Under the pieces are notes generated by a model, which was given only the letters and a program-made list of their open reading frames with translations, was not told where the DNA came from and searched no databases. A DNA stretch of 64,000 nucleotides from Candidatus Woesearchaeota archaeon (GTDB lineage: Archaea; Nanobdellota; Nanobdellia; Woesearchaeales; 0-14-0-80-44-23), in NCBI GenBank assembly GCA_038874135.1, contig JAVZCZ010000001.1, forward strand, positions 480,001-544,000, given 5' to 3'. Positions 11,425 to 18,493 of this stretch are shown here, one piece after another; position 1 is the stretch's first letter, and each line of letters starts with the position of its first letter. The position numbers and the translations under genes are program-made.

Positions 11425-12069
11425 CTAAACCCCGCGCCTAGGACAGAGCCTTTTCAATATGCAGAGCTCGCACTTAGGCTTAAGAGCATTACACACCATC
11501 CTCCCGTGCGATATTAAAAGAAATGAAATGTTCCTCCACTCTCTCCTGGGAAGAAGCGTCATGAGATCCTGTTCTATAACCCTCGGATCACGACTTCTAG
11601 TAAAGCCAAGCCTGAATGAAAGCCTCCTAACATGAGTGTCAACAACTATGCCCTTAACAACTCCAAAGCCCTCAGAGAGCACAAGATTCGCAGTCTTCCT
11701 GGCAACACCTGGAAGGCTGAGAAGGTCATCCATACTAGCAGGAACCCTGGAATTAAACCTCTCCACTATAGCCCTAGAAGCCTCAACTATGCGCCTCGCC
11801 TTCAAGTGGTAAAAACCAGTGCTCCTAATAATCCCTTCTAGCTCCTTAACATCCGCCCTGGCAAAATCCTCAGGAGTTCTAAACCTCTTAAAGAGCACTG
11901 GCGTCACAGCATTAACCCTAGCGTCAGTACACTGCGCAGAAAGCATGGTAGCTATGAGAAGCTGAAAAGGGTTTGAAAACCTCAAAGCAGTTCCGGGAAT
12001 GCCATACTCCCGCTTGAGAATTCTCACAACCCTAATTGCACGATCCCTTTCAGAATGGTTCACACGCAT
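11425..12069 (-). CDS. nth: endonuclease III
   Basis: LSAQCTD, HhH LPGVARKTAN, VDTHVRR, C-X6-C-X2-C-X5-C Fe-S motif. Confidence 0.96.
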   Translation of the reverse strand: MRVNHSERDRAIRVVRILKREYGIPGTALRFSNPFQLLIATMLSAQCTDARVNAVTPVLFKRFRTPEDFARADVKELEGIIRSTGFYHLKARRIVEASRAIVERFNSRVPASMDDLLSLPGVARKTANLVLSEGFGVVKGIVVDTHVRRLSFRLGFTRSRDPRVIEQDLMTLLPRREWRNISFLLISHGRMVCNALKPKCELCILKRLCPRRGV

Positions 12070-12177
12070 AAGAAGACAAATGTTAAATCAAATTAAAAGC
12101 TTTACTCAAAATGCTAAAGCAAAACAAGTTTCAGCAAGATGTAAGCACAAAAATTCTTGCATATATCTTTAGAAAAA

Positions 12178-12216
12178 AATTTCCACTGGACTTGCGTTGT
12201 AGAAATATTTTTAAAT
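12178..12216. promoter_or_regulatory. cas12a upstream region: inverted repeat ATTTCCAC-N12-GTAGAAAT followed by TATA-like TTTTTAAAT
   Basis: Read directly; the TATA-like element lies about 30-40 bp before the start codons and the inverted-repeat arms resemble the CRISPR repeat stem. Confidence 0.45.
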
Positions 12217-12242
12217 GAAGAAAAAATTAAAGGAAATAGGGG

Positions 12243-15200
12243 GTGGGTTATATTATGATTGAATCAAGAACTTCAATCTGGGATGAGTGCACTGGGCTTT
12301 ACAAATTAAAGAAGACCTTAAGATTCAGGCTGAAACCGATTGGCAAAACAGAAGAGTTCATAATAGAAAGGAAGATTATAGAAAATGACGAAGAACTTGC
12401 CAGAGATTCTGAAAGAGCTAAAAAAATAATAGATGAATATTATAGAAATTTCATAGCAGACAGGTTAAGAAATACAAAAATTAGCCTAGATAGTCTAAAA
12501 GAGTATGAAAAAAAGTATTTAGAGTTGAAAAAAGACAAAAAGAATAAAAACGCAACAAAAGAGTTCTCTACAATTCAAAAAAACCTCATTAAAGAAGTTC
12601 ACGATAAGTTCTTTGAAGGTACACAAAAAAATGAATTATTTGAAGACGACTTAATTAAAAATAGACTTCCCAATTGGTTAGAAAAAGAAAAAAGAGAAGA
12701 AGACAGAAAATTGATAGAAAAATTCAATAAGTTTGTTACATATTTTCATCCATTTTTTGAAAAAAGAAAAAATGTATTCTCAAATGAGGAGAAATCCACC
12801 TCGCTATTTTACAGAATTGTTGGTGAAAATTTACCAAGATATATTGATAACATAAAAAAGTATGAGAAGATAAGTCAATATTCAGATTTTGATTGCAGCA
12901 CACTAGAGAAAGAATTCTATCATGAATTAGGGGAAAAAAAATTAGATGAATTTTTCAAACTTGAAAACTTTAATGAGTTCCTAAGCCAGGAAGGAATAGA
13001 CAGATTCAACCTCGTAATAGGTGGTAAGTCGTTAGAAGGTAATAAAAAAATTCAGGGGCTCAACGAGCTGATTAACCTGTACTCCCAAAAACAGCCTGAA
13101 GACAAAAAACGGGAAATAAAAAAACTTTTAATGGTGCCACTATACAAGCAAATTCTAGGAGAAAAAAATACATTCTCTTTTGCTGAAGCAAAAATAGAAG
13201 ACGATGTAGAAGTAGTATCTACACTTCATGAGTTCTACACAGGAATCTCAAATGAGTTTGAAATAATAAAAAACATTTTTGAAAATATACTACAATACGA
13301 CGCTAGTGGGATCTATTTAAAAAAATCCTCTCTGAGTTACATATCTAAGGAGATATATAATGAGTGGGATCTTATTAATAGAGGATTAGATGCGTACGCA
13401 CAAAAAGACTTAAAAACTAAAAAAGAAAGAGACGCTTGGCTTAAAAAGACGTATTTTTCTCTAGAAGAAATTAAACAGTCATTAAGCTGCCTAGACGAAG
13501 AAGGTAAGTATTGGCAAACCTTTTTTGAGTACTACGCTGGAAAAAATAGCATTATAACGAAGCTTATAGATCAAGTAAAAGAAAAATACTCTCAGCTTAG
13601 CGAATTAAAACCGACTAAAAACGAGAAAGCACTCACAAAAGAAGAGAACTACAAAGATGTAGAAAAGATAAAGGAATTTTTAGATGTAGCTATGCAGCTG
13701 TATAAGATAATAAAACCGTTCAACTTAAGAAATAAAGAAGAAAGCTCACCATTGGAGATTAACGCAGAGTTCTACAACAAATTTGAAGAAGCATACGAAC
13801 CTTTTGAAAAAATCGTAGGAGTATATAACAGAATAAGAAATTATGTGACACAAAAACCTTTCAGCACTGATAAAATAAAAATAACATTCAAAAAATCAAA
13901 ATTATTAAACGGTTGGGATGTTAACAAAGTAAAAGATTGTCGGGGAATAATATTGGAGAAGGAAGGAAAATACTTCTTAGGTATTATTGAAGATACGGAA
14001 GAATTCGATAGGATAAAAAAGAAGGAAGAAGTAAAAGGACCAGCATATAAACTTGTGGAGTACAAATTAATTCCTGAACCTGCAAAAGAATTGGCACATG
14101 TGTTTTTTTCAGAAAAATACAAAAAAATGTATCCAATTCCTAAAGAGATAGAAGAAATAAGAAAGTATGCTAGTTACAGCAAAAATGCGAAGCTGCAAGA
14201 TGGTTATGAGAAGAAGGAATTCAAAATTGAGGACTGCCATAAGATGATAAACTTTTACAAAGAGGGTATAAAAAAACATCCGGAATGGAACAAGAAGTTT
14301 AATTTTAAATTCAAAGAAACATCTGAGTACAAAGATATTAAAGAATTTTTCCAAGATGTTCATAACCAGGCGTATGAAATAGAGTATGAATACATACCTG
14401 AATCTGAAATAAATCAAATGGTAAATGATGGCAAGCTGTACCTATTCCAGCTGTGGAACAAAGATTTTTCACCCTACTCAAAAGGTAGGAAGAACCTGCA
14501 CACGCTCTACTGGCAGGCATTATTCAGTGAAGAAAACCTAAAGGATGTAAAATTCAAGTTAGACGGAGGCGCAGAAATTTTTTTCAGAAATAAATCCATA
14601 GAAAATCCCACAATTCACCGAGCAGGGGGACCTATTGAAAACAAGAATCCAATTAGAGAAAAAGAAAGAAGCATATTCAAATATGACATCATAAAGGACA
14701 GGAGGTATACGGAAAACCAGTTCTTTTTACATTGCCCAATAACACTAAATTTCAAATTAGAAGAATTAAAAAGAAAAGATCTAAACAAAAATATCAACGA
14801 GATTATAGAGAAAAATCACTCAAAGGTTAACATTCTAAGCATTGACCGCGGTGAGAGAAACCTGCTGTATTACACACTGCTCTCACCTGAAGGGAGGATA
14901 ATAGAACAAAAATCATTAAACATTTTATACGATGATATTAATAGAAAACACTCATACTGGGATAAGCTTGATGAACTTGAACAAGAAAGGAAACGAGCAA
15001 GAGTAAACTGGAGCAAAATAAAGAATATAAAAGAGATGAAAGAGGGTTACCTATCAAAGGCAGTTCACGATATCTGCAAAATGGCTGTGGAGCATAATGC
15101 AGTGATAGTTTTAGAAGACTTAAACACCGAATTCAAGCGCGGAAGATCAAAGATAGAAAAACAGGTATACCAGAAGTTTGAAAAGATGCTAATTAATAAG

Positions 15201-15995
15201 TTAAACTACCTCGTATTCAAAGACAGGGAAGAAACGCAAAAAGGCGGACTGTTAAATGCATATCAGCTAACCAGCCAATTTACATCATTTGAGGAAATAG
15301 GAAAACAAACGGGAATAATATTCTATGTAGATGCGGGCTACACTTCAGCCATATGTCCCAAAACAGGATTTGTAAATATGCTCCACCCAAAGTACACAAA
15401 CATAAAAGCTGCACAGGACTTTTTCAAAAGATTTAAGTCAATAAGATACAACAGTAAAGAGAAATACTTTGAATTCACTTTCAAGTATGCAGACTTCTTA
15501 GAAAAAGACTCTAAAAATGAATACAACCAGAAAGAATGGACTGTTTGCAGCTTTGGAACGAGATTTGTAATAAAGAAGAAAAACAATTTGATAACTGGAG
15601 AAACTGAAGAGGTGCATGTAACGGAAAAACTCAAGGACCTATTCAAAAAGGAAGGAATCACATACGAGGATGAAAGAAACCTTGTTAAAGAGATAATTAA
15701 AAGCGAGAATAAGACATTCTTTGAAGAATTGATCTACCTGTTAAGATTAGTTCTGCAAATGAGAAACTTTGACAGTCAAAAAAATGAAGATTTTATATTG
15801 TCCTGCGTGAGAGATGCTTCGGGAAACTTCTTTGACTCTAGAAGAGCAGATAAGGATGAACCTCAAAATGCAGACGCAAACGGAGCATTACATATAGGAC
15901 TAAAAGGAATTCTGACAATCAAAAAGATCATTAAAGGAGAAAAACCTCATGTAGATAGGGAAGAGTATCTAGAATATGTGATAGCGAGGCACTGA
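12243..15995 (+). CDS. cas12a: type V-A CRISPR effector Cas12a (Cpf1); start may be ATG 12255
   Basis: KTLRFRLKPIGKT, RNYVTQKP, GWDVNK, LYLFQLWNKDFS, NLHTLYW; RuvC-I SIDRGERNL, RuvC-II VLEDLN, RuvC-III NADANGA; Nuc LQMRN; 1250 aa. Confidence 0.98.
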   Translation: MGYIMIESRTSIWDECTGLYKLKKTLRFRLKPIGKTEEFIIERKIIENDEELARDSERAKKIIDEYYRNFIADRLRNTKISLDSLKEYEKKYLELKKDKKNKNATKEFSTIQKNLIKEVHDKFFEGTQKNELFEDDLIKNRLPNWLEKEKREEDRKLIEKFNKFVTYFHPFFEKRKNVFSNEEKSTSLFYRIVGENLPRYIDNIKKYEKISQYSDFDCSTLEKEFYHELGEKKLDEFFKLENFNEFLSQEGIDRFNLVIGGKSLEGNKKIQGLNELINLYSQKQPEDKKREIKKLLMVPLYKQILGEKNTFSFAEAKIEDDVEVVSTLHEFYTGISNEFEIIKNIFENILQYDASGIYLKKSSLSYISKEIYNEWDLINRGLDAYAQKDLKTKKERDAWLKKTYFSLEEIKQSLSCLDEEGKYWQTFFEYYAGKNSIITKLIDQVKEKYSQLSELKPTKNEKALTKEENYKDVEKIKEFLDVAMQLYKIIKPFNLRNKEESSPLEINAEFYNKFEEAYEPFEKIVGVYNRIRNYVTQKPFSTDKIKITFKKSKLLNGWDVNKVKDCRGIILEKEGKYFLGIIEDTEEFDRIKKKEEVKGPAYKLVEYKLIPEPAKELAHVFFSEKYKKMYPIPKEIEEIRKYASYSKNAKLQDGYEKKEFKIEDCHKMINFYKEGIKKHPEWNKKFNFKFKETSEYKDIKEFFQDVHNQAYEIEYEYIPESEINQMVNDGKLYLFQLWNKDFSPYSKGRKNLHTLYWQALFSEENLKDVKFKLDGGAEIFFRNKSIENPTIHRAGGPIENKNPIREKERSIFKYDIIKDRRYTENQFFLHCPITLNFKLEELKRKDLNKNINEIIEKNHSKVNILSIDRGERNLLYYTLLSPEGRIIEQKSLNILYDDINRKHSYWDKLDELEQERKRARVNWSKIKNIKEMKEGYLSKAVHDICKMAVEHNAVIVLEDLNTEFKRGRSKIEKQVYQKFEKMLINKLNYLVFKDREETQKGGLLNAYQLTSQFTSFEEIGKQTGIIFYVDAGYTSAICPKTGFVNMLHPKYTNIKAAQDFFKRFKSIRYNSKEKYFEFTFKYADFLEKDSKNEYNQKEWTVCSFGTRFVIKKKNNLITGETEEVHVTEKLKDLFKKEGITYEDERNLVKEIIKSENKTFFEELIYLLRLVLQMRNFDSQKNEDFILSCVRDASGNFFDSRRADKDEPQNADANGALHIGLKGILTIKKIIKGEKPHVDREEYLEYVIARH

Positions 15996-16000
15996 AAAAA

Positions 16001-16561
16001 TTGGAAGAAAATATAATCATATCAAACATAAACGACTTCATATTCTGTCCGAGAAGCATCTACTTTCACAATCTTTACAGCAATTATGATGAACACCTAT
16101 ATCATGAAAACCCGCAAGTGGAAGGAAGAATAGTTCACAATAGCATTGACAAAAAACAATACAGCACAAGGCGAGACGTTCTTCAAGGAGTTGAAGTTTA
16201 CAGCGAATCTTTGGGAGTGATAGGTAAAATAGACTTATTTGACAAAAAAGAAGGAGTTCTAACAGAGCGTAAGAAGAGAATAAGCAGGATTTACGAAGGC
16301 TATCTTCTCCAGATGTATGCACAGTACTTCTGCTTAACTGAAATGGGATTTGCAGTCAAAAAAATACGACTGTACTCAGTAATGGACAACAAGACATACG
16401 AGGTAAAAATTCCTGGAGATGAAGACCTACATAAGCTTATGGAATTGCTGAAAAGAATGAGAAGTTTCAGGCTGGAAGACAAATCTTTTTCTCAAAACTT
16501 AAAAAAATGTGAAAAATGCATATATCGCAATATGTGCGATTACTACGCAGATGATGAGTAA
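16001..16561 (+). CDS. cas4: type V-A (PREFRAN-type) Cas4
   Basis: NDFIFCPRSIYF, GKIDLF, ERKK, QMYAQ, C-terminal CEKCIYRNMC Fe-S ligands. Confidence 0.95.
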   Translation: MEENIIISNINDFIFCPRSIYFHNLYSNYDEHLYHENPQVEGRIVHNSIDKKQYSTRRDVLQGVEVYSESLGVIGKIDLFDKKEGVLTERKKRISRIYEGYLLQMYAQYFCLTEMGFAVKKIRLYSVMDNKTYEVKIPGDEDLHKLMELLKRMRSFRLEDKSFSQNLKKCEKCIYRNMCDYYADDE

Positions 16562-17525
16562 ACCCGACTTTATGGAAAAGCAGGTTCTGTTTTTAGAGAG
16601 TAGTGAAGCTAAAAAAATATCATTCAAAAATTCAAATCTTCAAGTTACAGATGAAAATGGAAGGATAATACTTCAAAACTCCTGCCACAAAATATTTTTA
16701 GTCTTTATCCGGGGAGAGTTCACTATAACTTCTGTGCTTCTTAAGAATGCAAAGAGGTTTGGATTTCCACTAGTTTTTCTGACTTACTCTCTAAGACCAT
16801 ATCTGGTTTACAATGCAGGCACTGAAGGTAACTTCCTTCTAAGAAGAGTGCAATATTCGTGCAACAGAAGTTTTGAAATTGCAAAACACATAGTCTACAA
16901 TAAAGTATTAAATCAAGTTCAACTGATGAAATCGCTGAGATATAAAACAAAAGAAGAAAAAAAGGCAATAGAGATTATTGAAAAATTGTTAACATCTATA
17001 AAAACAGCTAATGACGAACAAGAACTCCTGGGCATTGAAGGAGAATCCTCAAAGCTATTCTTCAGAACATACTTCAAAAACATTAACTTCAGCGGCAGAA
17101 AACCTCGGATAAAACCGGACATATACAACTGCCTATTAGACATAGGATACACCTACCTGTTTCAATTCATTGAAGCAAACCTGAGCCTATACGGATTTGA
17201 CCTATACTGCGGAGTATATCACAAGCAGTTCTATCAGCGAAAATCATTAGTGTGCGACATCATAGAGCCTTTCAGGTGCGTCATAGAAAAGAGAATTCGC
17301 ACAAGTTGCAATCTGAAACAAATTGATGAAAAAGATTTTGTAAGTATACAGGGAAGATACGAGCTAAAAAAAGAAGCAACACAAAAATACAGTGAAATAC
17401 TACTAAGAGCAATTCTAGAATACAAACAGGACATCTTCCTTTATGTAAGATCATACTACCGCGCATTCATAAAACAGAAGGAAATAGAGGCGTACCCAAT
17501 ATTTAGGATAGGTGAGGATAGATGA
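16551..17525 (+). CDS. cas1: type V-A (PREFRAN-type) Cas1; likely start ATG 16551
   Basis: LLGIEG, GRKPR, LDIGY, GVYH, SLVCDIIEPFR. Confidence 0.96.
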   Translation: MMSKPDFMEKQVLFLESSEAKKISFKNSNLQVTDENGRIILQNSCHKIFLVFIRGEFTITSVLLKNAKRFGFPLVFLTYSLRPYLVYNAGTEGNFLLRRVQYSCNRSFEIAKHIVYNKVLNQVQLMKSLRYKTKEEKKAIEIIEKLLTSIKTANDEQELLGIEGESSKLFFRTYFKNINFSGRKPRIKPDIYNCLLDIGYTYLFQFIEANLSLYGFDLYCGVYHKQFYQRKSLVCDIIEPFRCVIEKRIRTSCNLKQIDEKDFVSIQGRYELKKEATQKYSEILLRAILEYKQDIFLYVRSYYRAFIKQKEIEAYPIFRIGEDR

Positions 17526-17794
17526 TGATACTAGCATATGACATAAGAGAAGATGATTTGAGAAACAGGTTCAACAAATTTATCAGGCAGTATGGAAGAA
17601 GACTCCAGTTCTCAGTTTATGAAATAAGCAACAGCGAAAGGATACTAAGCATAGTTAAACTTGAGATAAGGGAAAGCTTTGAAAAAGAATTCCAGCAAAG
17701 CGACAGCGTACTAATATTTGAAGTGAATAATCCTGAAAAAGTAATAAGATTTGGATATGCAAAAAACGAGGAAGATGATCTGGTCTTCGGATAA
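17522..17794 (+). CDS. cas2: CRISPR-associated Cas2
   Basis: LAYDIRED, YGRRLQFSVYE, DSVLIF. Confidence 0.96.
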   Translation: MMILAYDIREDDLRNRFNKFIRQYGRRLQFSVYEISNSERILSIVKLEIRESFEKEFQQSDSVLIFEVNNPEKVIRFGYAKNEEDDLVFG

Positions 17795-18003
17795 AAAATG
17801 CAAACCTCAGTCTGAATGCAAAATTATAAAAAAAGAGTTTCTCTTCACAAAAAAGAGCAAGCTTTTTAAATAACAAAGTCACAACATCCTTTCGTTTCCT
17901 ATGCAAAAGAGATGTGTCGTAGAGTAACTTCTACGCCGAAAACCGCAAATTTTGTCGTATATCAACCCCCTAAAATTCATATTCCTACCCCTAAGTGGGA
18001 CCT
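17795..18003 (+). promoter_or_regulatory. CRISPR leader
   Basis: AT-rich non-coding 209 bp between cas2 and the first repeat; TATA-like TTTTTAAATA at about 17863-17872; the degenerate repeat is at the far end of the array. Confidence 0.75.
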
Positions 18004-18493
18004 GTCTAATAATTCGTAATAATTTCTACTGTTGTAGATTCTCAGTTTTCTCAGAATTATTTTCAACGTCGTCTAATAATTCGTAATAATTTCTACTGTT
18101 GTAGATTTTTTCAAAAAAAGTCTTTAATTTTGTAATTTGTCTAATAATTCGTAATAATTTCTACTGTTGTAGATCTCATAATATTTTTTTAGCCCAGCAT
18201 GTCTAATAATTCGTAATAATTTCTACTGTTGTAGATCGAAATCACTCTAATTGAGCCGAACGATGGTCTAATAATTCGTAATAATTTCTACTGTTGTAGA
18301 TGGCTATGTTTATAAATTCAAATCCTTCGTCTAATAATTCGTAATAATTTCTACTGTTGTAGATGTTTGCTTGTTCTAATATTTTTTTTGTTGTCTAATA
18401 ATTCGTAATAATTTCTACTGTTGTAGATACAAGGTATGATTCTACAGAATAAGTTTGGTCTAATAATTCGTAATAATTTCTACTGTTGTAGCT
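18004..18493 (+). CRISPR. type V-A CRISPR array: 8 x 36-nt repeat GTCTAATAATTCGTAATAATTTCTACTGTTGTAGAT, 7 spacers of 26-32 nt
   Basis: Repeats start at 18004, 18071, 18139, 18201, 18266, 18329, 18393 and 18458; canonical AATTTCTACTGTTGTAGAT 3' handle; last repeat ends GTAGCT. Confidence 0.99.

Follow-up and report, generated by a model that had tools for sequence, protein, structure and literature searches.

A natural type V-A Cas12a with histidine at the PAM-lysine position in an archaeal CRISPR locus

The window, that is, the whole stretch of 64,000 nucleotides analyzed here, carries a type V-A CRISPR-Cas locus whose Cas12a has a histidine, His619, at the position of the minor-groove PAM lysine. 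Alignment shows that this lysine has been replaced, while the other lysines that contact the PAM are kept, and the residues for DNA cleavage and RNA processing are intact, as are the adaptation genes. We put the probability at roughly 50% that the protein is a functional type V-A Cas12a that still recognizes T-rich PAMs including TTTV, and that the swap removes the lysine acetylated by the anti-CRISPR AcrVA5, the presumed driver. The main value of the finding is a recurrent motif, together with a pair of natural alleles on which the question of anti-CRISPR escape can be put to a direct test.

The PAM-site histidine and the rest of the enzyme

The features of the locus are collected in Table 1. 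The original prediction had placed a 17-residue PAM helix at 14061-14111 and its histidine codon, which is CAT, at 14097-14099 (residue 619 if GTG 12243 is taken as residue 1), and this was confirmed. The residue equivalence was also right: His619 aligns without gaps to K671 of FnCas12a, and K595 of LbCas12a and K607 of AsCas12a are reached via the homologue P0048, whose H592 falls in the same column. Misalignment of His619 was rejected, and so was the sliding of a neighboring Lys into register, as K615 and K625 correspond to the separate residues Fn K667 and K677. The change from MLPK to ELAH likewise holds, with Glu616 for Met, Ala618 for Pro and His619 for Lys; A618 is found in 3/327 homologues. 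The replaced lysine does have the PAM-reading role ascribed to it, forming hydrogen bonds with T/A pairs of the PAM (PMC7556299, PMC11889556). The claimed deviation of the WED motif stood in part: V563 and C566 differ, at non-key sites, but the equivalent of the PAM-reading As K548 is kept as K562. A more unusual WED change than these two is K553 at the position of As T539, which is shared by 3/327 homologues.

Table 1. Positions of the cas12a locus and of selected Cas12a residues in the window
Feature	Position	Strand	Basis
cas12a, 1250 aa from GTG, type V-A effector	12243..15995	+	TIGR04330, 1187 bits over residues 15-1248 (cut-off 300); FnCas12a E 1e-279
WED-II PAM loop, with conserved K562 (As K548) and the rare residues K553 (As T539), V563 and C566	13899..13940	+	homologue alignment
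Loop-lysine-helix-loop segment of the PAM-interacting (PI) domain; K615 (Fn K667) and K625 (Fn K677) both kept	14061..14117	+	alignment, model
Glu616 at As M604, where most homologues have Met, and Ala618, where 285/327 have Pro	14088..14096	+	homologue alignment
His619 (CAT) at Fn K671 / Lb K595 / As K607 / Mb K635	14097..14099	+	alignment
RuvC catalytic D868, E958 and D1211, all intact	14844..15875	+	homologue alignment
cas4 (type V)	16001..16561	+	TIGR04328
cas1 (type V)	16509..17525	+	TIGR04329
cas2	17522..17794	+	TIGR01573
Leader	17795..18003	+	assigned by position
CRISPR array, 8 repeats of 36 nt and 7 spacers of 26-32 nt	18004..18493	+	repeat with canonical Cas12a 3' hairpin handle; last repeat degenerate

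The Cas12a profile matched the protein over its full length (REC, WED, PI, RuvC and Nuc). The RuvC triad is accompanied by R1174 of Nuc, the pre-crRNA processing residues H792 and K818 of WED-III lie in conserved columns, and the PAM residues As K548 / Lb K538 and As T167 are kept as K562 and T166. In an AlphaFold model of residues 505-860 (pLDDT 93), computed without DNA, helix 613-621 is retained, and the model matches Cas12a structures with a TM of up to 0.84. The lysine of canonical TTTV-reading enzymes (Fn K671 / Lb K595 / As K607) is missing, His619 standing in its place. On all the defining features that can be tested, the protein qualifies as a type V-A Cas12a; of the features of the canonical enzymes it lacks only the PAM lysine.

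With FnCas12a, LbCas12a, AsCas12a and MbCas12a (5NG6, 5XUS, 5B43, 6IV6) the window protein shares full-length homology, the RuvC D/E/D and RNase His/Lys residues, the PI fold (TM 0.84), the cas4-cas1-cas2 genes, the canonical repeat handle and the K548/K667/K677 equivalents. It differs from them in having His in place of K671/K595/K607/K635, Glu for M604, Ala where the residue before the PAM lysine is Pro, Lys for T539 and LKKT for LSKT. Lys occupied the site in all of the solved-structure alignments inspected (Fn, Lb, Mb, Lb2 and ReChb). The same residue is replaced in the engineered K-to-R (RR) and K595A variants, whereas the window protein is natural and has His rather than Arg or Ala. HkCas12a and PiCas12a vary in PAM naturally via WED/PI residues (PMC7261169), but the Pi positions (K163, N599, S600, F604 and T628) differ from the His619 site. 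No mention of a His variant at the PAM-lysine site was found in the literature searched, the coverage of which was incomplete. Descriptions of the PAM lysine call it conserved and essential, and no other residue is the target of an enzymatic anti-CRISPR.

The locus and its host

The gene order cas12a-cas4-cas1-cas2-array, with 36-nt repeats that have the hairpin handle of Cas12a at their end, defines a type V-A locus. The host is an archaeon from hot-spring samples, assembled as a single 910-kb contig. The G+C content of the cas island is 33-35% versus 46-47% in the flanks. Searches of one genome from the same genus and one from the same family gave no match, and the island was therefore probably acquired horizontally by the archaeal host. 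In the region 12236-12257, GTG 12243 sits within a Shine-Dalgarno-like G run, and the true start of cas12a is therefore probably ATG 12255, in which case the histidine would be His615. The stretch just upstream of the gene, 12178-12216, repeats the repeat handle in degenerate form, interrupted by an insertion, and could be a regulatory repeat-like RNA.

Contigs from two runs of one study (57x and 40x), possibly the source of the assembly itself, showed zero differences from the window over 12000-18033, and an assembly error as the origin of His619 was rejected on this ground. In run X2 a contig whose cas genes are identical has a different trailer-end spacer, and its last repeat is a variant one; the repeat depth suggests about 10 copies. 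Because of this other trailer-end spacer the CRISPR system of the window looks alive.

Occurrence of histidine among Cas12a homologues

The original prediction had proposed aligning many Cas12a sequences to see whether His is common. In such alignments His was found at the PAM-lysine site in 7/120 close clusters and in 6/146 representatives at 50% identity, so that among the homologues compared it is uncommon but recurrent (4-6%). Residues other than Lys were present in about 22% of the 146 diverse representatives, and in the phylum of the host 7/10 Cas12a carry Arg or Asn. On a FastTree tree of 328 proteins, built without the helix from a set somewhat enriched in His by our own additions, the 19 His tips required 15 parsimony changes. 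The closest representative, P0122, also has His, yet it does not group with the window protein. A change from Lys to His takes two base changes (AAG versus CAT in the gut alleles described below).

The histidine does not usually travel alone. Of the His proteins, 16/19 have lost the Met three residues upstream (position i-3, As M604), against 15/256 of the Lys proteins; Asp or Thr is the usual replacement, and Glu that of the window, and in independent pairs the ratio was about 8:1 (median p 0.02). Since His arose repeatedly on the tree and loss of the i-3 Met accompanies it, the pair is, at the level of the alignment, a recurrent two-site motif and not a one-off. The His-bearing homologues (P0122/L014, the P0048 cluster, P0060, P0243, L035 and L052) resemble the window protein in the His itself and mostly have Asp or Thr at i-3; they are 38-48% identical to it, with His of independent origin on the tree. 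Among His-bearing homologues, Glu at i-3 plus Ala at i-1 was seen in the window protein only.

Several other unusual proteins were noted in the same alignments. About 22 Cas12a (P0136, P0148, P0163, L006, L069 and others) have Asn at the site within a D-I/V-Q-N motif, followed by a remodeled loop. In P0188, P0231, P0232, P0237 and P0249 the RuvC-I or RuvC-III Asp is replaced in the alignment, and one of them, P0249, is a His protein as well. Some archaeal ORFs for Cas12a (L009-L013 in G377, G350 and G088) reach 1435-1557 aa, apparently through large insertions around the PI region. A split Cas12a with a His allele (L020:6929-11930; genes for 347 and 877 aa) has lost cas4 and cas1, retains an 8-spacer array and is unchanged in several samples.

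PAM usage of the gut Clostridia alleles

One gut Clostridia species (a 90%-identity cluster) contains both MLPK (Lys) and TLPH (His) alleles. In the closest Lys/His pair about 3% of the sites differ (97% identity), with a compact block of three residues at the helix. The spacers of the His alleles L091, L092 and L095 (68 spacers) and of the Lys alleles L015, L016, L026 and L370 (102 distinct spacers) were mapped at <=2 mismatches to two prophage families from related genomes, extended with IMG/VR relatives. TTTV preceded 14/19 protospacers of the His allele and 8/15 of the Lys allele (Fisher p = 0.29) against a TTTV background of 1.7%, a comparison made on an orthologue that is 40% identical to the window protein and has TLPH instead of ELAH, and one that reads the acquisition PAM rather than the breadth of interference. 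The non-TTTV flanks of the His-allele protospacers were TTCT (a one-base slip), TCTC, ATTC, GTTC and GTGA.

His is thus not linked to a shift away from TTTV, and the non-TTTV or shifted PAM of the original prediction is unsupported: for the one natural His allele whose spacers could be placed, TTTV flanks are no rarer than for the Lys allele of its species, and His recurs family-wide. The result shows that the gut His alleles persist with TTTV spacers, which they presumably use. The His-allele arrays are strain-unique and of considerable length, with 26 and 33 spacers. For the window Cas12a we consider it probable that TTTV is still usable. In type V-A systems Cas4 selects the acquisition PAM (PMC9419969, PMC13034035), and Cas4 is nearly alike between the gut Lys and His alleles; a relaxation of the PAM therefore lies beyond the reach of spacer flanks. 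In practical terms, loss of the PAM lysine alone does not predict a new PAM. At least three PI-helix alleles occur in one gut species (L015, L370, L091, L095 and L369), and one of them (P0095) is also without the Fn K667 equivalent.

Possible reasons for the replacement

How the enzyme could work without the lysine may be pictured as follows. The imidazole of His619 would take over the hydrogen bond to the PAM T/A pairs, and Glu616, one helical turn away, possibly positions His619 or keeps it protonated. The K595A mutant of LbCas12a still cleaves the canonical PAM, more slowly (PMC11889556), and the swap in the window probably costs some speed or stringency. With somewhat less assurance, it may have been favored by removing the lysine on which acetyltransferases of the AcrVA5 type act, within a surface patch also bound by AcrVA2.

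AcrVA5 acetylates the PAM lysine (PMC7556299, PMC13131331), and AcrVA5-like proteins are known from phages of Bacteroidota and Firmicutes (PMC10799925). The acetylation-site lysine (Mb K635, Lb K595) is absent from the window Cas12a, with His619 in its place, and the AcrVA2-bound peptide of 7CI2 spans the His619 segment, so that the inhibitors' targets coincide exactly with the residue and the segment that are altered. Other lysines of the protein could nevertheless be modified. At the N-terminus (12306-12317) the window protein has LKKT versus the LSKT recognized by AcrVA2, and none of the other homologues in a set of 261 has Lys there. Dong et al. reportedly described in 2019 a natural allele, K635R, that is resistant. 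To our knowledge, no type V-A anti-CRISPR has come from any archaeal virus, and we know of no inhibitor for the host of the window. Overall, the original prediction was right about the residue and its PAM-reading role, was not borne out on the PAM shift, and missed that the lysine is the acetylation site of AcrVA5.

The gut alleles vary at 32/80 sites in the PI region versus 30/420 in RuvC/Nuc, with further variable patches in REC1 (81-160) and REC2 (401-480), and a second cluster (P0069/P0284) behaves alike. Such patches fit an arms race at inhibitor-facing surfaces. Silent changes are also raised in the PI patch (30/80), however, and mosaic import therefore accounts for its variability without site-specific selection. 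Its amino-acid/silent ratio is only modestly above that of RuvC, and the patch consequently gives no demonstration of positive selection. No PF00583 acetyltransferase was detected in five complete phages attacking the host of a His allele, although AcrVA5 may escape that model. A sirtuin was not found in the host genome either, a result too weak to serve as evidence. We regard anti-CRISPR escape as a hypothesis for the driver of the swap, at somewhat less than even odds.

K-to-R at the PAM-lysine site belongs to engineered variants with an altered PAM. It is conceivable that His619 acts jointly with K553, E616 and A618 to widen recognition (to C at -2/-3, for example) or to move it off TTTV, and in this way catches viruses that escape through their PAM. 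Single WED/PI changes alter the PAM between near-identical natural orthologues (PMC7261169), strain variants of St1Cas9 also have differing PAMs (PMC6961573), and K553 and A618 are rare. We nevertheless regard a relaxed or shifted PAM as doubtful. Acquisition PAMs cannot reveal relaxation, but a true shift would render the TTTV-flanked spacers of the His alleles useless, and the equivalents of As K548, T167, Fn K667 and K677 are all kept. A relaxed PAM or slower cutting is conceivable, relaxation above all in view of the extra changes K553, E616 and A618. A bolder combination appears unlikely to us, namely that His, backed by an acidic residue one helical turn before it, is a convergent, acetylation-proof replacement of the PAM lysine, an anti-anti-CRISPR allele segregating within species, and that K553/E616/A618 of the window would also broaden the PAM or make it pH-sensitive.

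The site could also be nearly neutral, accepting K, R, H or N, in an island that drifted after its transfer into the archaeon. The frequency of residues other than Lys among the diverse representatives, and of R or N in the host phylum, agrees with such tolerance, as does the divergence of the window protein, which is <=53% identical to any protein found and has other rare residues too. A two-base change made about 15 times, coupled to i-3 and seen as a compact block of three residues when alleles of 97% identity are compared, makes this explanation distinctly unlikely. Finally, loss of the lysine could cripple DNA opening in a degenerating locus. K671A in FnCas12a abolishes the boost that Cas12a gives to spacer acquisition (PMC13034035), and the split His homologue L020 has lost its cas4 and cas1. 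With four intact genes, two runs without differences, an array that differs between samples and other His alleles adjoining long, strain-unique arrays, we consider decay very improbable.

The 97%-identical Lys and His alleles, set apart by their three-residue block, provide a ready test of whether hosts escape from acetylating inhibitors by replacing the target residue, and at what cost. The hot-spring His variant could serve as an inhibitor-insensitive, slower-cutting or thermotolerant Cas12a.

Targets of the spacers

The window spacers gave no self-target, and neither GenBank phages nor 400 genomes from the order of the host yielded a credible hit. Spacers 4, 7 and 5 had no exact match in IMG/VR, nor did spacers 4 and 7 in JGI metagenomes. 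The T-rich spacer 6 matched two related phage contigs (L352 and L353) behind TTTG with 4 mismatches, a hit that came from a merged pattern for spacers 1 and 6; it was judged to be due to chance because of three seed mismatches, low complexity and the lack of a match by any other spacer. A contig of run X3 overlapped spacer 2 over 35 nt with 5 mismatches, which was no better than other chance matches. Most window spacers were uncovered in runs X1 and X2, a mere hint given that contigs show presence and not absence. The arrays beside the His homologues L014, L020 and L035 had no credible targets, and neither the gut array L015 in GenBank phages nor L095 in plasmids gave any. Spacer 5 of L020 and spacers 10 and 13 of L035 resemble tRNA fragments, perhaps phage tRNAs or attachment sites.
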